A stretch of 64,000 bases of DNA from an uncultured Pseudomonadales bacterium (GTDB lineage: Bacteria; Patescibacteriota; Microgenomatia; UBA1400; PJMF01). Position numbers and translations under genes: made by a program. The stretch is from positions 2,514 to 66,513 of the forward strand of contig CAZSJW010000001.1 of the NCBI GenBank assembly GCA_964607285.1, given 5' to 3'. Below, piece after piece: positions 17,022-31,289 of the stretch. The notes under the pieces were generated by a model. The model had not been told where the DNA came from and did not search any database. It saw nothing but the letters and a program-made list of their open reading frames with translations. Position 1 is the stretch's first letter. Every line of letters begins with the position of its first letter.

Positions 17022-20000
17022 CTAGGTTGCAGGTGAATTACTCTTAGGTGTTTTTTGTCTTTGTAGTAGCCCTGTGGCAACTAAAAAACTGCAGACTAAC
17101 AGTATCCAGATACCAATAAAGAGTAGTATTTGTGCATCGTGAATAACTATAATTGTAGTTACCCCCTCAGGTATGAACCATCCCTGTGCCCAATTATTGA
17201 CTGTAACTTCTGCTTTGATCTGCTGATGCTTGAGTACGCTTTGGAGAGCACTCCATACAGAAGTACCATCCCAGACATAGGCTCGCCAGCCAGGGTTCCT
17301 TGACTCATTGAGTGACATCACTCCATTTTCACCGTTCAGTTCAACCCAGTATGTACCAGTTCCCCAGCGTTTTATGGTGTTTACTGCCAGATTAGTGCTA
17401 TATAGCTGAGTATTTTTTGGGATAAGGGCAACTTGTGATAACCATTCAAACGAGGCAGGCATGGGTTGTATGGAGATCGCGTTCAACTCGTTTTGTGCTA
17501 GTTCTGTTCCGTACGATCTATTTTCAAAGTGCAGACTGTATTGAGAGATAGCCTGGTTTTTCCAATCAGGCACAGTTACCCACATATCAAACTCTTTGGA
17601 AGTCATAACGTGCTCAAAATCAACGCGGTTAGTGGCTAAGTTCTCCAAGTAGGCACGAATGTTTCGACCTGCATGATTTTTACCTGTAATGCGCAGCAGT
17701 GCAGGCGTTTGATTATTTGCGTGTGGAATGATGAAGCTATCACAGCCCGTTGCGCCACCACTGTTTTCATACAGCACAGAGTTGGCAGTCATAGTTTTAT
17801 TGCGAGAACCCCTATCAAACTCTGTACATGATGCAAACTTTGTTATGTGCAGTGAATCTAGTAAGTTACTGCTAGCAATGGTTGTAAGCACTAAAGTGGG
17901 TTGGTCTTGATCAAGGCGAACACTGGTGGTGGGGAGTTGTAGTTCATTCCAGATTGCAGAAGGTATAGTGGCAGTGTGTAAGTCACTGGACTCAATCAGG
18001 ATATGGGTAGCAGAGGGAGTTGCGATAGCTGTATCGAAGTAGTTGATGGTGATTTCCTCACCGTAGCGCAGCCCAGTTAGCGACACCGCTTGCTCTGAGT
18101 TTGCTTTAAGTTCTATCACTTGCCCGTTTAATTCAATAGTAAGTGCCTCAGGTGAAACAGCAAGTGGAACAGCTACGGATGGGAGTGTCGGGAACTCGAT
18201 ACTGGTATCTCCAGCTAAGACGCGCAGTGGTGTACTGAATGCTATCTTGAGCTCGGCATCTGAGTAAGCCAGTTTTGCAGTTTGGCTAAGATATTGGCCT
18301 TGAGTCAGCGGTGGGAAAGTGAGTTCGTACTGGCCTGAAAGCGTTTCGTGTGCCACAAACGAAGGCCCATTGGATGTGTTTGTGATAGGAATACTCTCTT
18401 GCTGCAAGTTAGCAAAAGGGTAGATGGTGTGTGGGATAGTCTCATCTGCCGTAATGGTATCAGTAGTGAGGAGAGTGCTGGGATCAAATCTAGAGTACAG
18501 AGAGTTTGCAGTGGTGTACGTAGCAGATTGCACCGCACTGACGGGTGCCACGGCAACAGATTTGTTTTGGTACAGGGAAATGCTTCCCAGCGTTCCCACT
18601 TTTTCAACACCAGGTAGCATAGCCAACATGGCTTGCAGTTCTGCCACAAAGAACACCTCTTTATTCGTGTTTGGCAAATATACTGAATCGTCCAGTAGTA
18701 CATGTGCAATGTTGTATTTCTGTAGCAATCTATCTAACTGATCTACATCCTGGTTGTACACCGCTCGCTGCATTTCCAATCGGTAGGTTTCATTAAAGGG
18801 ACTCCAGACGTCAAACGAACGCCCGAGAATAGGCTGATGCATGCCGTACCAGAGAAACCCAGAGCCTGTGTACCCTCTGTGTTCCATCCAACTGTGCATA
18901 TCCCAGCCTGTATAGGTGTAGATGGGAAACACAGCAACTCTCCCATATCTGGGCCGCTTGGCAAAGTACTCCATGACCTCTGTATACTCCTCAGGCAACT
19001 TGACTCGTGCTCCTTGATACAGGAAGTGGCCCTGCATACTTGGCCAGGATAACCAAAGTACGCAGAGTACGCACACTATGCCCGTTGTGTTGCGAGCTCG
19101 CGCTATTGTCTGTTGGGTAAGTCGCCTGGAGAAAAGTTCAAACAGCCCCGATATGCCTACCGCTGCCCAGAGTGATAGAAAAAGACTAGCAGACATAGAA
19201 AGCTTAGAGTAGGGAATTCTAAAGGCTTGATTAAGAATGGGTACAAAGCGAATGGCATCTGAAACATAGGTGAGAGGCCAAGTATCTGTGAGAAGTAGCA
19301 CGAAGGTACAAACAGCCGCGATTGCCAGCCCTGTGGCGGTGGCACTTCTCTTGCTGAGTCGAACTGCTCCCCACCCAACTCCCCATAGGCTGAGCAGGGC
19401 TATACTGTACCCAATCATGCGCACTACGGGTGACTCGAGGTGCTGCTTCCATGGAGTTAAAATTAATTCAAGAGGGCTGCCACTGTCAAATCTAGCTTGG
19501 TCATATGAGTCAAATAAGAACCCTTCAAGCAGAGACACCTCGGCTAAGTTGCCAGTAGCTCTTGTGGTGTAAATAAACTCTGTGGTGGTAATTTGATTAA
19601 GCTTTGCAAACAAGTAGTGATCACCTTGGGTGGCGGTGAAATAGGCAACGGGAGCCAGCCAGTAGGCGTTAGTGGCAAGTACTATCAATACCGCTAAAAG
19701 GCTGGTACGTACGGTCTCCCATCGTTTGGGGTGTATGAAGAACGCTGTACTGGCAGCACAACCTAAAAATAGCCCGTACGTGATAAAGAGTGGCGGAATA
19801 AAGCCAATAATGGAAAGGTAAAGATTGAGTAGGAAGAACACCACGAGTTTCCTGGTGGTTCGGTTTTCCAGTAATCCTACGAAACTCCAGAGTACCCATG
19901 GGAGCACTCCGTACATGACCGCAAAGGGCTCGAGTGCCACGTAAAATGTTTGAACAGTGCCTGGATGAAGTAAGTACAGCAGCGCGCCGATTGTCGCGGC

Positions 20001-20408
20001 CCAGGATTTAGTGTTCTGTTTGAGATTCAGCTGTTCTAGTGTTTGCGCAGTGAGGACGTATGCTCCAAGCACTCCGACTAGCAGCATGAGGTACATAAAT
20101 GCGTAGCGCAGGTACTGCAAAGGTATAAATAAACCAAGCACAGCTTGTGTTACAGCATGAAATAGTTGCGCAGAGTACCCATGCCCGCCAAGTAGTCCCA
20201 GTCCTTGGAAGCTTTGCCAGGCACCAGTTATTGAACGCTCAATGTTGAGTGCAGGGTTAAACTCACTGGCCATAGTATCCCAGCTGAGAAACCAGGTACC
20301 AAGTTCAGTATTAGTTAGGACAATTGCCAACCAGGCAACAAACACTACAACCACGCCCAAGTGTTTACTGAGCAAAGACTGGAATGAGCTTTTTAAGCCG
20401 TGCCACAT
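17022..20408 (-). CDS. 1128-aa polytopic membrane protein with a large extracytoplasmic region and C-terminal TM; GT-C-like glycosyltransferase candidate
   Basis: About 12 or more hydrophobic segments in the first ~480 aa, a long soluble region, and a final TM LLFIGIWILLVCSFLVATGLL. The architecture resembles large GT-C / DUF3367-type enzymes. Family assignment is not verified. Confidence 0.6.
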   Translation of the reverse strand: MWHGLKSSFQSLLSKHLGVVVVFVAWLAIVLTNTELGTWFLSWDTMASEFNPALNIERSITGAWQSFQGLGLLGGHGYSAQLFHAVTQAVLGLFIPLQYLRYAFMYLMLLVGVLGAYVLTAQTLEQLNLKQNTKSWAATIGALLYLLHPGTVQTFYVALEPFAVMYGVLPWVLWSFVGLLENRTTRKLVVFFLLNLYLSIIGFIPPLFITYGLFLGCAASTAFFIHPKRWETVRTSLLAVLIVLATNAYWLAPVAYFTATQGDHYLFAKLNQITTTEFIYTTRATGNLAEVSLLEGFLFDSYDQARFDSGSPLELILTPWKQHLESPVVRMIGYSIALLSLWGVGWGAVRLSKRSATATGLAIAAVCTFVLLLTDTWPLTYVSDAIRFVPILNQAFRIPYSKLSMSASLFLSLWAAVGISGLFELFSRRLTQQTIARARNTTGIVCVLCVLWLSWPSMQGHFLYQGARVKLPEEYTEVMEYFAKRPRYGRVAVFPIYTYTGWDMHSWMEHRGYTGSGFLWYGMHQPILGRSFDVWSPFNETYRLEMQRAVYNQDVDQLDRLLQKYNIAHVLLDDSVYLPNTNKEVFFVAELQAMLAMLPGVEKVGTLGSISLYQNKSVAVAPVSAVQSATYTTANSLYSRFDPSTLLTTDTITADETIPHTIYPFANLQQESIPITNTSNGPSFVAHETLSGQYELTFPPLTQGQYLSQTAKLAYSDAELKIAFSTPLRVLAGDTSIEFPTLPSVAVPLAVSPEALTIELNGQVIELKANSEQAVSLTGLRYGEEITINYFDTAIATPSATHILIESSDLHTATIPSAIWNELQLPTTSVRLDQDQPTLVLTTIASSNLLDSLHITKFASCTEFDRGSRNKTMTANSVLYENSGGATGCDSFIIPHANNQTPALLRITGKNHAGRNIRAYLENLATNRVDFEHVMTSKEFDMWVTVPDWKNQAISQYSLHFENRSYGTELAQNELNAISIQPMPASFEWLSQVALIPKNTQLYSTNLAVNTIKRWGTGTYWVELNGENGVMSLNESRNPGWRAYVWDGTSVWSALQSVLKHQQIKAEVTVNNWAQGWFIPEGVTTIIVIHDAQILLFIGIWILLVCSFLVATGLLQRQKTPKSNSPAT

Positions 20409-21720
20409 ACTGCCATTCTAGAGTGTTTCTGAGCGGGTTGGAAGTGTAGATGGTAGTGAGCTCTTCTTGCAGGCGCACTTCTGGTGATCGTTGCACAGCG
20501 AGGTCTTTAGCAAGGGCAGCAATTTTTCTGCGTACAGAAACTTTACCCAGTAGTCTGAGGTGCTCTACGAACGAGCGTTTGTTTCGCTTAAAGACCAACT
20601 TGTCTGTAGAGATTGCGTGTTTGGCTAGCAGCTCTTGGATATCACCACTCTGTAAATATGCACCTAAGTCTTTGGAAAGTATGAAGGGTACGCCGTAGGC
20701 AATACCTTCACCCCAGGATGCAGATGCACCAAGGATGCCACGGTATGGTAGTACTGCCATATCTGCAACAGCAAAGTAACGGCTGAGCTCTGCATCAGGA
20801 ATGAAGCCAGTCAGACGAATGTTTTTAGAGTGCACTGCAGCCTGACTGAGTGAGCGGTAGAACTGCTCATAGTGGGTTTTTCCCGTTTGGGATGGGGCTT
20901 TTCCCCCTGCCAAAATAAGATGCAGTTCTGCATCCCCCAACTGATCTGCAGCAATATCTCGAACTGCATTCACCAGCCAATCAACACCTTTGTATCGAGT
21001 CATGAAGCCGAAACAGACTAAGACTAAATCATTTGGTTTGAAACCCATTCTGGCTCTCCAGTAGCGGCGGCCCTTTAGATTTTTTGGGTACACCCAGAGA
21101 GGTGATACAACTAATTTTTGTTGTGCTACATATGGGGAGAGACGTTGGCGCATGCTGTCATCTAGACAAATAATTTGATCAAGACACATACCGAGTACTC
21201 GGTAGTACCAAGGCAAAAGTTTGGTTAGTGCCTGCATAGTTTTGCCAGTCTGCGAACGACCCAAGTGGCGAGCTAGAAAGCCAAAATTTGTGATCACATT
21301 ATGTGCAAAGTAACTGAGGAAGTATCCTGCACTTCTCAGAGCAAGATAAAAAGGAAGGGCAGCGGCCATCTGCAGCATGTTTCCACTGGTGTAAAACTCA
21401 GAGTGGATATGTAAATGTTTTGCTTTATTGAATAGTCTCAATGCTTGGGAGATCTGAAGGTACATTTTAGGAGACGCTGAAAAAACTGGCAGCACTAAGA
21501 CTCTGCCTCGCTCCAGAAGCTGTGGTTTGCGGTCATATTCCTGCTGAACTAAAACCACAAATCGCTGTTTTGTGCTGCGAGCGACAGTGCCAACAGTTTG
21601 CTGGGTGTACTTTGCTACACCATGATATGAGTGGGCAATGTTCTGGTAGGGGTACTTGGAAAGCACCAAGATCGTATCTGGCGAGTTGAATCGCGAAATG
21701 ATCTGTTTTGATAGTTTCAT
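20365..21720 (-). CDS. GT-B fold glycosyltransferase (family 1/4-like)
   Basis: C-terminal nucleotide-sugar-binding style block GFIPDAELSRYFAVADMAVLPYRGILGASASWGEGIAYGVPFILS. 44-nt overlap with the downstream membrane-protein gene. Confidence 0.7.
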   Translation of the reverse strand: MKLSKQIISRFNSPDTILVLSKYPYQNIAHSYHGVAKYTQQTVGTVARSTKQRFVVLVQQEYDRKPQLLERGRVLVLPVFSASPKMYLQISQALRLFNKAKHLHIHSEFYTSGNMLQMAAALPFYLALRSAGYFLSYFAHNVITNFGFLARHLGRSQTGKTMQALTKLLPWYYRVLGMCLDQIICLDDSMRQRLSPYVAQQKLVVSPLWVYPKNLKGRRYWRARMGFKPNDLVLVCFGFMTRYKGVDWLVNAVRDIAADQLGDAELHLILAGGKAPSQTGKTHYEQFYRSLSQAAVHSKNIRLTGFIPDAELSRYFAVADMAVLPYRGILGASASWGEGIAYGVPFILSKDLGAYLQSGDIQELLAKHAISTDKLVFKRNKRSFVEHLRLLGKVSVRRKIAALAKDLAVQRSPEVRLQEELTTIYTSNPLRNTLEWQYVARLKKLIPVFAQ

Positions 21721-23508: not shown

Positions 23509-23538
23509 AAAAAGCCCCTCTTGGGGGAGGGGCTTTTC
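23509..23538 (-). terminator. Intrinsic terminator downstream of 23563..24132
   Basis: Stem AGCCCCTC/GAGGGGCT flanked by an A-run on + (a U-run on the - strand). Confidence 0.7.
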
Positions 23539-23562
23539 GATGATTGTTGGTTTTGGGTGGGG

Positions 23563-24132
23563 TTAGGAGGACGGCTCGAACCAGAAGGTGGCACCTGTGT
23601 CCCACCCTCTCGCATAGTAGTCGTTGTAAGCCAGTTGCCAGCTAGGGTGAGTGTTTAGCTCACCTCCAACATCCACAACATGGTTTCCGCTGACATTCGG
23701 ACACGGATTTTCGTTCGGAATTTCTGAGTGAGGAGGCACTGGCCAAGCCACGCCACCTGTGCAGTATCCCGCGGGGGGTTGCATGGGGCCTGAAAACAGT
23801 ATCGGGAGAAAAATCACATTTGTGCCTCCCTGCATAGGCTCGAACCAGAAGGTGGCACCTGTGTCCCACCCTCTCGCATAGTAGTCGTTGTAAGCCAGTT
23901 GCCAGCTAGGGTGAGTGTTTAGCTCACCTCCAACATCCACAACATGGTTTCCGCTGACATTCGGACACGGATTTTCGTTCGGAATTTCTGAGTGAGGAGG
24001 CACTGGCCAAGCCACGCCACCTGTGCAGTATCCCGCGGGGGGGGTCACTGTTCCGCCCTGCCCATGCACAACAAGGGCAGTCAGCAGTGAAAAGAAAAAA
24101 ACAAGCATAGTCATTGTCAACTTGCGTTCCAT
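23563..24132 (-). CDS. Secreted protein consisting of a perfectly duplicated ~69-aa module
   Basis: Signal peptide MTMLVFFFSLLTALVVHG. The module PPAGYCTGGVAWPVPPHSEIPNENPCPNVSGNHVVDVGGELNTHPSWQLAYNDYYARGWDTGATFWFEP occurs twice. SD GGAGG upstream. Looks GC-richer than its surroundings. Confidence 0.85.
   Translation of the reverse strand: MERKLTMTMLVFFFSLLTALVVHGQGGTVTPPAGYCTGGVAWPVPPHSEIPNENPCPNVSGNHVVDVGGELNTHPSWQLAYNDYYARGWDTGATFWFEPMQGGTNVIFLPILFSGPMQPPAGYCTGGVAWPVPPHSEIPNENPCPNVSGNHVVDVGGELNTHPSWQLAYNDYYARGWDTGATFWFEPSS
23573..24042. repeat. Tandem direct repeat, period 264 bp, with 206 bp identical in both copies
   Basis: 23573..23778 is identical base for base to 23837..24042 (compared by eye). 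The copies end in G6 (23773..23778) and G8 (24037..24044) runs. Confidence 0.9.
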
Positions 24133-24417
24133 TCGTATCTACCTCCACTTACACCAGCCATCCCAATCCCCGAAGTGGGGCGGGTAGGCGTGGCGATCGA
24201 GCACTTTTCCAGAGAAAAGAACCCCATCACCACGCCCGAGGCGTGCGTTTGCGGGAGGTGCAACCATAGGAACGAGCCATAGGCAGCACAACTAATTCGA
24301 GTCGCAATATACCACTTGTTAACGAACAATCATCGAGAACTGGAGCGGAATGGTTCAGCAGGCAGCAATTGCCTGGAAACAGTCACGCGCCAGGGTGCCA
24401 ATCACTTGGCAGCGTGT

Positions 24418-24446
24418 ATTATACCCCTATAGACTTATAACGTCAA
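24418..24446 (-). promoter_or_regulatory. Sigma70-type promoter TTGACG-17-TATAAT driving the 23563..24132 gene through a ~280-nt leader
   Basis: On the - strand: TTGACG (24446..24441), 17-nt spacer, TATAAT (24423..24418). Confidence 0.6.
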
Positions 24447-24469
24447 TATTATAGGTTCATACATGCAGT

Positions 24470-24498
24470 TTGACTCCAGGCTAAATATGATGTAAAAT
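24470..24498 (+). promoter_or_regulatory. Sigma70-type promoter TTGACT-17-TAAAAT for 24528..24791
   Basis: TTGACT at 24470..24475, 17-nt spacer, TAAAAT at 24493..24498. SD GGAG about 7 nt before the ATG. Confidence 0.5.
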
Positions 24499-24527
24499 AA
24501 CCAAATAAGTATTGAAATGGAGATTAT

Positions 24528-24791
24528 ATGAAAATTGAAACTATGTCCACACCACTCGCTGCTTTATTTGTAGCTGTAGCTATCGCTGCAACCGCAGGTT
24601 TAGCTTACACTGCTGCTCAACAGCAGATGCGAAACCAAGCTGTGGAGAGTTGTTTCCGCGCTGGTATGGTGGAGTCTGTCCGCGAAGGCGAAGGAGAGAC
24701 TAAAGAGCTAAAAATCACTGAGCCAGTTCGTGAAATCTACACATACTGCTTGCAAGACAAGGGGTATACCTCTGTCATTCAGGGTAAGTAG
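24528..24791 (+). CDS. Small membrane-anchored/secreted protein
   Basis: 87 aa. N-terminal hydrophobic segment PLAALFVAVAIAATAGLAY, two Cys, own promoter and SD. Confidence 0.65.
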   Translation: MKIETMSTPLAALFVAVAIAATAGLAYTAAQQQMRNQAVESCFRAGMVESVREGEGETKELKITEPVREIYTYCLQDKGYTSVIQGK

Positions 24792-25708
24792 GTATCCCTG
24801 GGATCTAAAGTCGGATCAGTTTTTTCTAACACCACACTGAAGGGTGATGTCCCGCTGTAGTGTTTTGCGTCCATCATGGCGTATGCTTCTAGTTCGTACC
24901 CAGTAGTTAGATCCATAATTTGCTCGTACAGGGTATTAAATTTGCCTCGGAGGTATCTTAGTGGTAAAGCTAGAACCAAACTGATTGAGATTGCCCCTAA
25001 AGCCGAGGGGTTTGTAAGTGCTTGCTCAGCGATGGCAAAACCTGAGATAAATGCAGCTCCCGTGAAAGCCGCAAAGGTTTTGAGACGAAACTCTAAAATT
25101 CTACGATGAGCCTGTTTCATTTCTTTTGTTGGCCCTTTGACCCTTTGTATTAGATGTTGCCGTTCATGTCTCCACATTGCATCGAGAAGTTGTCGGAAAT
25201 ATTGGGGTTTATATTCCTCTGGTAAGTTTCTAGGAAAAAATAGTCGGTGTGTATGAGGCGTCCCTTTGGTAAACAGTGAATACAGAGATAGAATGTCAAA
25301 CTGCATTTTTGGTTCTGTTAGTAGCAACCGGTGATTCAATTTATCAACTTGATCTGCTGCAGACATTAGTATTGGTACGTCCAACTTTAGAATCTGGTTT
25401 GCGTGTTCAGTATCATTGGACATCACACCAGCTTTAATGCTGCGCACTAGCTCGGATTGATTTGTTTGGCTGCTAATGATCGGTACAAAGGTGTCCGAAA
25501 TCCGTTCCGCTTCAGCCTCTGATAGACCTTGTCGAATTGCTTCTGCTTTGAGGTCTGCTCTCATGCGTGCAGTATCGATTCTGATAATTGCATGTGCTTC
25601 GGAAATCTGTATACCAATCTCGTATACTCGATCCTTCAGGAGCTCAGTCACTTGCTTTTCAGAGATGTGTCGTTGTGTTGAGCCCTCACTTGGATTTTTT
25701 TCTGACAT
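24779..25708 (-). CDS. HExxH-motif membrane protein (intact paralog)
   Basis: 309 aa. Soluble N-domain, conserved LDAMWRHERQHL (HExxH), two hydrophobic segments, then ELEAYAMMDAKHY. Paralogous over its full length to 25748..26724. Confidence 0.8.
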   Translation of the reverse strand: MSEKNPSEGSTQRHISEKQVTELLKDRVYEIGIQISEAHAIIRIDTARMRADLKAEAIRQGLSEAEAERISDTFVPIISSQTNQSELVRSIKAGVMSNDTEHANQILKLDVPILMSAADQVDKLNHRLLLTEPKMQFDILSLYSLFTKGTPHTHRLFFPRNLPEEYKPQYFRQLLDAMWRHERQHLIQRVKGPTKEMKQAHRRILEFRLKTFAAFTGAAFISGFAIAEQALTNPSALGAISISLVLALPLRYLRGKFNTLYEQIMDLTTGYELEAYAMMDAKHYSGTSPFSVVLEKTDPTLDPRDTYLP

Positions 25709-25747
25709 ACTACAATGAGTATACAGGAAACCGTGGTAGTTAGAACT

Positions 25748-26724
25748 TTAACTAAAGTATTTTTTGTGAGGATCCATGTTCGGATCAGCTTTTTCAAGCC
25801 GAACAGTGAATGGTGAGTTGGCTCTGTGGTGTTCTGCAGTCATCATGGCGTAGGCCTCAATTTCTTCGTTACTTAGCAAGTTTAGCGCTCTGTCACTAAT
25901 CATACTCACAAGTATGCTAACTGGCATAGCTAGTCCAATTGAGACGTTTACACTTGGAGGTAGCTGAAGATTCAGCAAAGACAATCCAGTAGAAGCCCAA
26001 GAAAGAAACAAAGCACCTTTAAAGACGGAGCGCATTAGGTTAGCAATTTTACGATGTCTAATATGTGAATCTGTGATTCCCTTATCCTTCTCTGGCTTTA
26101 AGTATTGCACTAAATGCTCACGCTCGTGTCGCCACATCGCATCCAGTGCTTGCTTGATGTACTGAGTTTTCATTTCTGGAGGCAGCGTATCTTTGGGAAA
26201 AACCACACGAACAGAACTTAGTGCATGTTTGCTAAATAAGGAGTGTATGCTGATGATATCAGGACTTACTTTAGCCGAGCGTAGTTGAAATCGATGATTG
26301 AAACGAGTCTCTTTTCAAATGTTTCGAGTATCCCTTCCCAGTCAAATCCGAGCATTGAGCCAAGCTCAGCAACTTTTCTTACGAATGTCCCTTGGTCTTG
26401 CTCATTTTTTCCAGGTCTTCGTCTTTGATTAAAAAGTACAATATTGTCTCTACCAATTATTGGGAAAAAAAGTTTTGCTGCTAGTTCTGCCCTGGGCTCA
26501 GAAACCCCTTGCTGTATAGCATACTCGTAGAGATCCTGGCGCATCTTACCTGTATCTACTGAAATAGTTGCGATGTCATCATCAAAGGGTTGGATAAGCT
26601 CATACACTTGATCTTCACCCAGTTCCAGTAGTTCCTCATCTGTGATTTCCTGAGGTCTGACAGGAGCGATATCTAAAGTATTTGGATGTAAAGTATCTGT
26701 AGAATGTGTCTCATCGTAGTTCAT
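25748..26724 (-). pseudogene. Frameshifted paralog of 24779..25708 (tracked as two ORFs, 26266..26724 and 25748..26206)
   Basis: The N-ORF aligns to the N-half of the intact paralog and the C-ORF to the C-half (LDAMWRHEREHL, EIEAYAMMTAEHH). C-frame homology continues upstream of its ATG (NHRFQLRSAKVSPDIISIHSLF vs NHRLLLTEPKMQFDILSLYSLF). The frames switch near GAAAAG (26311..26316). Confidence 0.7.
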
Positions 26725-29950: not shown

Positions 29951-30604
29951 CTACGGTGAGGAAAACAAAGCAATCTTGGTCACGAATTCCTGAAACCAGG
30001 TAGCACAAAGTACATTTCGCGACAAAGCTTGTTCAGCGTATGTCACACAATAACTTGTGCGTTGCTCTGATGTCAGGAGTTGCTCGGCTCGCTGGAATGC
30101 CCATGCGAGGTGTTCTGGCGTGATATAGGACTGGTGCGGGTTCAATCCCGCAGTAGCCAATCCATTCACACTTTCACACTGCACAACGAGGGGGTGACCC
30201 AGGGCCACGTTCCCCTCGTCTAATTTCCAAACGCTTCCGTTGACCCATCCCGTTCGGTCGGCCATAGCATCAACTTCTGCGCGTCCGTTGGCTTGGCACG
30301 CGCTGTGTGCATTTGCTGGGTTGGTCGAGCCGCCCCAGGGGCCGATAACCAGGACAGTGGCGTTTTCCAGGCATTGCCAATTGTCCTTGGTAGATGTGGT
30401 TACACCCGCTCCAGACTCGTTTGTACCCTGGTAAACCAGGGCGTCTTGACCTGTACAAACGCGTTCGGTAAACACCCCAGGTGTTCCTGGGGCGGGGTCA
30501 GGAGACCCCGATTGCGCCTGTGCGGCTGGCGCGACCGGTCCAAGCAGGACAACGGCTAAAATGGCACCCAAAATGAGGCCAAGGACGATTTGATAGCGCT
30601 TCAT
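29951..30604 (-). CDS. Secreted Cys-containing protein (217 aa)
   Basis: ATG at 30604 is preceded by AAGGAG. Signal peptide MKRYQIVLGLILGAILAVVLLGPVAPAAQA. Multiple Cys. Looks GC-richer than neighbours. The tracked 270-aa ORF has an unlikely N-extension. Confidence 0.8.
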   Translation of the reverse strand: MKRYQIVLGLILGAILAVVLLGPVAPAAQAQSGSPDPAPGTPGVFTERVCTGQDALVYQGTNESGAGVTTSTKDNWQCLENATVLVIGPWGGSTNPANAHSACQANGRAEVDAMADRTGWVNGSVWKLDEGNVALGHPLVVQCESVNGLATAGLNPHQSYITPEHLAWAFQRAEQLLTSEQRTSYCVTYAEQALSRNVLCATWFQEFVTKIALFSSP

Positions 30605-31289
30605 CGTTTTAAACTCCTTACTAGCGCAAACGTTAAATGACCTTTTCGTAGTCATCACGCCTATGCCTCTTTGCCATTTCTGGCAAGTCTGACATAGGAC
30701 CCTGCGCCCAAAGCACCTCGCTCGCTGCAACAAACTTGCAGACGGAACAAAGCCTTTAGCCACACGATCCTATGCCAAACATAGAGACAGTACGCTTTGA
30801 GGAGCACTGTATTTGGTAGCCGATGTGGTTTCCCACATCTTATTCCCACTTTTTAAAGAACAATCACTGGGCAAGGGTTGATGGTAGTCGAACGGCACAC
30901 GAGGTGACGCTCGAGCAGCTATCTAGCTTGCTCTTATCAGCAGTTATGCGAACAATCATTTGGCAGCAATTGCCAATGGTTTTTCGCGGTGAACCACTGG
31001 TATCAAGAAGAAACTTCTTGACACGTGTTTCAGTCCAAACTGGGGGGAGAGAAAGAAAGGGTGGACGGAAACAACTGTCAATAAGTCTGAGAGTCATGTC
31101 GTGCGTGGCCGCAACGTAAGTGCCATCAGGGGTGAAATTGATTCGAGCGATGGCAGAGCTCGAAGCTACATAAGGCATACGTATTACTAGATAGTACTAT
31201 AGCACAATTGGGCAGTGGTGTCAATGTTATGGGACTTTATCTTGTAGAGAATTTTTGTTAGAAAGAGAGTACTTTCTTCGGACACATAC

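Follow-up and report, generated by a model that had tools for sequence, protein, structure and literature searches.

The 64,000-nucleotide stretch of contig CAZSJW010000001.1 analyzed here (the window, to which coordinates refer unless another locus is named) contained an open reading frame (ORF) predicted to encode a secreted protein of 189 residues. A cysteine-containing module of 69 residues occurs twice in this protein, encoded by two segments of DNA that are identical at every one of their 206 nucleotides. Recent intragenic gene conversion, in which one module-coding segment would have overwritten the other, was the probable best explanation for this identity, with both the mechanism and its recency deduced from comparison with related sequences.

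Identical module-coding segments and their probable origin

Positions 23573-23778 and 23837-24042 were identical at 206/206 nt, with their starts separated by 264 nt (88 codons). Both copies were in frame within the ORF at 23563..24132 (minus strand, 189 aa) and encoded residues 31 to 99 and 119 to 187, which comprise the same 69 residues and include Cys36/Cys56 and Cys124/Cys144; the protein ends in ...FWFEPSS. A sequence-only reading of this DNA had described two identical 206-bp stretches with a period of 264 bp, which encode one 69-aa Cys module two times over in a secreted protein of 189 aa, and the comparison and translation bore out this description. Identity between the copies ended abruptly, with flanks that differed from the first base outward on both sides. 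The pair was the sole direct or inverted repeat of at least 40 nt in the whole 64-kb window, and a perfect match of this length cannot arise by chance. Tandem Repeats Finder did not report the 206-nt pair, which amounts to less than two full periods and encloses a nonrepeated spacer.

The closest family member found (P0009; the window protein is designated P0001) was also 189 aa in length and was 39% identical to P0001, with the two collinear over 183 aa and a single gap. Its layout consisted of a signal peptide, a module, an FLP linker, and a second module, with a period of 261 nt, and its linker (FLPLMLS) aligned with that of P0001 (FLPILFS). Because the same units stand in the same order and the linkers align, the module-linker-module layout is ancestral. 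Based on gene order, P0009 is the positional ortholog of P0001. The two modules of P0009 were diverged from each other (60% identical in protein, with 74% identity in the best 53-nt DNA stretch). Within-protein module identity was therefore 100% in P0001 and 60% in P0009, compared to 41 to 44% between the orthologs, a pattern that is the classical signature of concerted evolution. In a neighbor-joining tree of 49 modules of the family, three clades (P0018/P0020, P0011/P0012, and P0010/P0013/P0014/P0015) showed grouping of modules by position, and the modules of those proteins therefore diverged independently. Unlike these, the modules of P0001 and P0009 were grouped by protein.

The two-module layout is old and predates the split between the species that carry P0001 and P0009. 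Under gene conversion, one module-coding segment would recently have overwritten the other by homologous, nonreciprocal recombination. The converted tract would correspond to the whole stretch of homology between the modules (206 nt), and the nonhomologous signal peptide end, linker, and C terminus would have been left untouched. The limits of the identical tract, from PPAGYC to FWFEP, coincided exactly with the limits of module homology in the family alignment (A1), as expected for homology-dependent conversion of a whole unit. No outside donor was apparent within the window, which contained no further copy of the module.

The sequence-only reading had described the pair as a tandem duplication and had accounted for its lack of divergence by a very recent duplication, ongoing copy-number variation, or an assembly artifact. 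Variation in copy number would be possible in principle. The recency would hold for a conversion as well, but the event was most likely a conversion and not a new duplication, given that the 58-nt spacer is unique, the linker that it encodes is conserved, and the ortholog has diverged modules. Recent duplication in a single-module ancestor, with the layout shared with P0009 arising by convergence, would account for the lack of divergence between the copies and for the grouping of P0001 and P0009 modules by protein rather than position. However, duplication of a 264-nt unit would have produced two identical stretches of 264 nt, whereas only 206 nt were repeated and the spacer and flanks were unique. 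Furthermore, linkers homologous to the one encoded by the spacer were present in P0009 and 10 additional family members, and the ortholog was equal in length, with a nearly equal period (261 versus 264 nt). A new duplication was accordingly considered very unlikely.

Conversion was in turn weighed against several points. The perfect identity may be overstated if an assembler popped bubbles, and the copy number may exceed two. Either copy may have been the donor, and conversion may have run in either direction, as the P0001 module was 41 to 44% identical to both P0009 modules, and the nearest ortholog found was too distant (39%) to date the event. Independent reduplication and loss in each lineage would be an alternative, although a less parsimonious one. 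Last, the enrichment in GC at third codon positions (GC3) extended over the whole gene and was not specific to the modules, so that it lent no extra support to biased conversion.

The possibility that the repeat was an assembly artifact, also raised in the sequence-only reading, was made unlikely by an independent assembly. Logan contig L001 (SRR12762285_972795), assembled at k = 31, was 100% identical to window positions 24013-26276 and, at its start, included exactly the last k - 1 = 30 nt of the repeat copy at 23837-24042. All 31-mers are distinct in Logan unitigs and contigs (PMC12424806). A contig end at this point therefore indicates two different continuations in the reads for the terminal 30-mer of the repeat, one of them the right flank and the other, by inference, the spacer. 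The other end of L001 (26276) lay at no visible repeat and thus offered no positive control for reading a break as a repeat edge.

In the case of an artifact, the true gene would contain a single module or two modules that differ clearly, and the identical copies would stem from a misresolved loop or from a collapsed consensus written out twice. The metagenome-type source, the single NCBI contig, and the singleton protein clusters were compatible with such an error, and an exact repeat of 206 nt exceeds the usual k-mers, so that read pairs are needed to resolve it. Bubbles between near-identical paths are popped by de Bruijn assemblers, and a few true differences could have been erased in this way. 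Against this, the spacer was unique and in frame and encoded a linker that is conserved among family members, the ortholog included, which an artifact would not invent; the independent k = 31 assembly stopped exactly 30 nt inside the repeat; and no other long repeat was present in the 64 kb. An artifact was therefore judged quite unlikely. More than two copies are possible, since a loop in the assembly graph fixes only the minimum, and single-module deletion variants, which would create no new k-mers, may coexist with the two-module form. Caution is warranted in that short-read assemblies can neither fix the copy number of such repeats nor guarantee their perfect identity.

Table 1. Features of the module gene and its flanks, in window coordinates
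Feature	Position	Strand	Basis or remark
Coding sequence for the 189-aa predicted secreted protein	23563..24132	-	ORF; layout of signal peptide, module, linker, module
Predicted Sec signal peptide, M1-G24	24061..24132	-	MERK, an 18-residue hydrophobic stretch, and VHG followed by QGG; cleavage site (between VHG and QGG) inferred from the translation
C8 homopolymer, codons T30-P31-P32	24037..24044	-	G8 on the plus strand
Module 1 (residues 31-99), 5'-proximal repeat copy	23837..24042	-	Repeat comparison, AlphaFold2
Spacer of 58 nt, encoding linker MQGGTNVIFLPILFSGPMQ	23779..23836	-	Unique in the window
Module 2 (residues 119-187), 3'-proximal repeat copy	23573..23778	-	Starts with a C6 run (G6 at 23773-23778, plus strand)
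Intrinsic-terminator-like hairpin and T-run, just 3' of the stop codon	23509..23541	-	Sequence and terminator scan
Promoter-like site TTGACG-17-TATAAT, followed by a structured 5' leader of ~280 nt	24133..24446 (site 24446..24418)	-	Promoter scan, alignment, folding

The module family and its linker

A full HMMER scan of 1.84 billion protein cluster representatives produced 13 matches, of which 12 were true relatives of the window protein. The remaining match, P0019 (1,758 aa), was dropped as a false match to a protein containing PKD and delta-60 repeats. With P0001, the family thus comprised 13 proteins. The window protein had no significant match in Pfam or NCBIfam, and no domains from these databases were found in nine other family members that were scanned. 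In a word-indexed search of 5.8 billion proteins, the window protein matched itself alone, and the same type of search with module alignment A1 returned no match. Scanning a collection of genome contigs with the single protein revealed no relative, and the sole return of a metagenome scan was another copy of the P0009 locus. The family is rare (13 clusters per 1.84 billion representatives) and unannotated, with gene contexts that are apparently of the Patescibacteria type.

All 12 relatives were signal-peptide proteins with between 2 and 7 copies of a module of ~70 residues, and a comparable charged-plus-hydrophobic N terminus was found in 13/13 family proteins. The module consensus was xxAPxGFCxGxxxW...P..C..G...VDV.G........A...L..G..GT.WFEP, with Pro, both Cys, Gly, and Trp invariant or nearly so (alignment A1). 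Prediction of the module structure, which had been proposed in the sequence-only reading, yielded a confident model: AlphaFold2 folded the module alone as a small alpha/beta domain (pLDDT, 97.2), for which no known structural relative was found. The model of the full mature protein (pTM, 0.52) contained two confident modules joined by a low-confidence linker (~52), in an arrangement like beads on a string.

In another organism, three family genes were found in tandem (L008:440-2302), with predicted products that carry two modules (178 aa), one module (132 aa), and three modules (302 aa). The family can therefore grow by duplication of whole genes in addition to gaining modules.

The linker encoded by the spacer, MQGGTNVIFLPILFSGPMQ, carried a hydrophobic [FYW]-[LF]-P motif that was found across the family. 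In its extended form ([FYW]-[LF]-P-x-[ILVM]), this linker occurred exactly once per protein in 12/13 members regardless of the number of modules (2 to 7), and it was always located before the last or the second-to-last module. The Pro was invariant and the Leu nearly invariant in an alignment of 12 sequences (A2). Window positions 23794-23817 encode linker residues VIFLPILF, which were predicted to be unstructured and had counterparts among the family proteins P0009 to P0020.

DNA-identical domain repeats that are kept identical by recombination in a secreted protein are a well-known and ordinary phenomenon. The closest analog in behavior was the Alp/Rib family of streptococcal surface proteins, such as the alpha C protein, whose repeats are maintained in this way and can change in number. 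In these proteins, domain repeats of ~80 residues are DNA identical, in frame, and arranged as beads on a string, and their number cannot be fixed by short reads (PMC13106166). The window protein resembles these proteins in having a signal peptide, in-frame DNA-identical domain repeats, and a beads-on-a-string model. It is nevertheless not homologous to them, as it lacks a match to Rib or any other Pfam family and lacks an LPXTG anchor. The modules also differ, the window module being modeled as an alpha/beta domain and Rib being an all-beta sandwich, and the window protein has just two copies, which are not directly tandem but are split by a unique hydrophobic linker and showed no variation in number. 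Furthermore, the host belongs to the Patescibacteria and is not a Gram-positive pathogen.

Diversity-generating retroelements (DGRs) are common in genomes of the candidate phyla radiation (CPR). The repeat pair is similar to a DGR in consisting of two near-identical direct repeats of ~100 to 200 nt, one of which occupies the 3' end of a secreted-protein gene. It differs in that both copies are coding in one reading frame and match at 100% of positions, so that adenine-specific mismatches are absent. On the grounds that the copies were identical and both coding, a DGR template/variable pair was rejected. No reverse transcriptase domain was found among 14 neighboring ORFs, to which the scan was limited within the window.

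The more useful yield of the analysis was a rare, undescribed domain family with a confident but unmatched fold and a once-per-protein linker, together with a conserved structured leader RNA (described below). These two side results may help to direct studies of the cell envelope in CPR bacteria, which is still poorly understood.

Homopolymer run and noncoding flanks of the module gene

Homopolymers of G6 at 23773 and G8 at 24037, the latter just past the signal peptide at TPP codons, had been noted in the sequence-only reading, and their positions and lengths were confirmed. On the coding strand, the G8 run reads ACC CCC CCC; six of its eight bases belong to the repeat, and the other two are from codon ACC. 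The run follows the N-terminal hydrophobic segment and lies two codons into the conserved Pro-rich start of module 1, and it exists because the conserved Pro-Pro start of the module is combined with a choice of CCC codons. Shortening or lengthening the run in silico to C7 or C9 resulted in truncated products of 70 or 69 aa, respectively, so that slippage by one base in either direction would be predicted to abolish the 189-aa protein.

The occurrence of such a run was close to chance. One G/C run of at least 8 was observed in the 64 kb, compared to 0.68 expected, and two of at least 7 were observed, compared to 2.9 expected. When the window protein was redrawn with synonymous codons according to local codon usage, a G/C run of at least 8 appeared in 3 to 4% of trials, a frequency that makes the run mildly unusual but not striking. 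At the site equivalent to C8, P0009 had a C5 run, and it contained C6, C7, and C6 runs at other codons. No G/C run of at least 6 was found in five other family genes that were examined. The P0009 protein was identical across five independent SRA assemblies, and its C7 run was therefore stable at the consensus level. L001, the single independent assembly of the window locus, had an identical G8 length, also at the consensus level.

The run had been proposed to be a classical substrate for phase variation. The tract itself and the truncation that would follow from slippage agreed with this proposal, whereas the chance-level count and the lack of conservation in relatives did not. As a contingency locus, the gene would be turned on and off by slippage of C8, and the 206-nt repeats would allow modules to be lost or gained in frame, a scenario that would be compatible with gene conversion. 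Several observations were in line with it: the run is located at codons 30 to 32, where a change of a single base gives products of 69 or 70 aa, and a run of this length was obtained in just 3 to 4% of the redraws under local codon usage. The low identity of the module protein to its ortholog (39%, versus 56 to 78% for most syntenic neighbors) would also fit an exposed protein under diversifying pressure, although the neighboring lamin-tail-domain (LTD) protein was equally diverged (40%). Inactivation of genes by 5'-proximal homopolymers is known, and switches based on 5' homopolymer tracts are well described, for example, in Listeria inlA (PMC2831843; PMC8355987). The window gene resembles the contingency loci of Neisseria, Campylobacter, and Haemophilus in having a G/C run of 8 within its 5' region, in encoding a predicted exported protein, and in the truncation that slippage by one base would cause. 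It differs from them in that the tract in the window was neither overrepresented (one run versus 0.68 expected) nor conserved in relatives, including the five family genes without a G/C run of at least 6. The consensus-level stability of C7 in the five P0009 assemblies and the G8 length in L001 also argued against a contingency locus, and the top literature matches on phase variation contained no mention of Patescibacteria. A role for C8 as a dedicated switch was thus a formal possibility with no indication of use, and it was considered unlikely.

The region of ~395 nt between the module gene and a divergently oriented gene for an 87-aa protein was compared to the corresponding region of L003, the Logan contig that carries the P0009 locus. 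Nucleotide identity was 68% in this region, versus 48% in the coding sequence, and the leader contained perfectly conserved blocks of 12 to 33 nt (aligned to L003 and L091; L003:580-953). The promoter-like site ahead of the leader was strong and was conserved between the two species. The predicted fold of the leader had a z score of -3.9, and the consensus included a long hairpin at about 24187-24237 in the window, with a few compensatory changes. No match to the leader was found in Rfam. A small ORF in the leader was rejected as a candidate, given that conservation crossed a 2-nt indel and a change of frame. In L003, the hairpin equivalent to the terminator had a different stem sequence and was also followed by a T-run.

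A conserved block in the leader (24321-24339) was complementary to part of the 3' untranslated region (UTR; 23534-23552) just before the terminator; 17/19 positions paired, including a perfect core of 12 bp. The same complementary pair was found in L003 (767-782 and 1541-1556), so that the entire gene is bracketed by inverted repeats in each of the two species. These blocks could represent 5'-3' UTR pairing or recombination sites, with two species compared and no covariation observed. Taken together, the slippery C8 run, the loss or gain of modules, the structured leader, and the flanking inverted repeats (block of 12 to 19 nt) could be combined into a variable surface cassette with stacked controls, which would be a new regulatory or invertible unit. 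This was regarded as highly improbable. If true, such a cassette would serve a domain family that is fast evolving and previously undescribed and that is associated with a locus for envelope glycosylation.

Composition, gene neighborhood, and host

Family genes were GC- and GC3-rich islands in 5/5 loci (window 23563-24132, L003:954-1523, L010:10001-11689, L008:203-2302, and L009:458-1384), and the enrichment extended over the whole gene. The module gene of the window had a GC content of 0.54 and a GC3 of 0.55, compared to a GC content of 0.44 for the window and a GC3 of ~0.38 for a typical gene. Values were higher for the module gene of L003 (GC, 0.65; GC3, 0.72), and those for L010 (GC, 0.57; GC3, 0.62) were above those of its neighbors (0.33 to 0.40 and 0.30 to 0.39, respectively). 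The bias is not of the ordinary expression-linked type, because ribosomal protein genes in the window were not GC3 rich. GC-biased gene conversion was not supported as the cause of the high GC3, which was equally high outside the modules. A further compositional outlier was found on the minus strand at 29951-30763 (GC, 0.54; GC3, 0.55); it is predicted to encode a Cys-rich protein that had no Pfam match and contained an internal signal-peptide-like start (MKRYQIVLGLILG...).

In L003, a divergent gene for an 86-aa protein adjoined the module gene on one side, and the genes past the module gene were predicted to encode, in order, a GT1 glycosyltransferase, a protein of ~1,118 aa, an LTD protein, a VanZ-like protein, and ABC-2 permeases. 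Gene order in the window matched that of L003, with one inserted gene for a 549-aa protein and with the small divergent protein being 87 aa in length; the conserved neighborhood occupied 17022-21720 and 24528-24791. Identity between the window and L003 was highest for the GT1 (78.5%) and VanZ-like (77%) proteins, followed by the 87-aa protein (72%), the ABC-2 permeases (60 to 66%), and the 1,128-aa protein (56%), and was lowest for the LTD protein (40%) and the module protein (39%). The gene for the module protein was therefore among the fastest evolving at the locus.

The module gene was located beside a GT1 gene, a gene for a membrane protein of ~1,100 aa, or both in five informative loci (window, L003, L008, L010, and L092), and a partial GT1 homolog adjoined the module gene in L009. 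The membrane protein of ~1,100 aa corresponded to DUF6541 in L010. This gene context, with GT1 and the membrane protein as its recurring members, suggested a role related to the cell envelope or to glycans. A protein of 72 to 87 aa characterized by a single hydrophobic segment and by two cysteines (...C...Y.(I/Y)C..D.GY...) was encoded at four loci (window, L003, L009, and L010), and a TrwB/VirD4-like ATPase was encoded downstream in L010 and L092.

Ribosomal protein S11 from the window was 93% and 87% identical to its counterparts in two metagenome-assembled genomes (MAGs; CAZBMX010000005 and CAZBTU010000001, respectively, with CAZUHV010000001 also among the closest) and 75 to 87% identical to those in many MAGs of “Candidatus Pacebacteria”/Paceibacterota and of the “Patescibacteria group.” The window therefore originated from a bacterium of the Patescibacteria (CPR). 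Many of the records with the closest S11 relatives were titled “uncultured Pseudomonadales bacterium,” yet their S11 was grouped with Pacebacteria and Patescibacteria records, and these titles look like taxonomic mislabels.

The genes at 24779-25708 (309 aa) and 25748-26206 (152 aa) had a common C-terminal region with an HExxH-like motif (WRHERQH and WRHEREH) and a common stretch of 95 nt with 73% identity, and neither had a Pfam match. Another gene for a 152-aa protein (26266-26724), which also had no Pfam match, lay next to these two.

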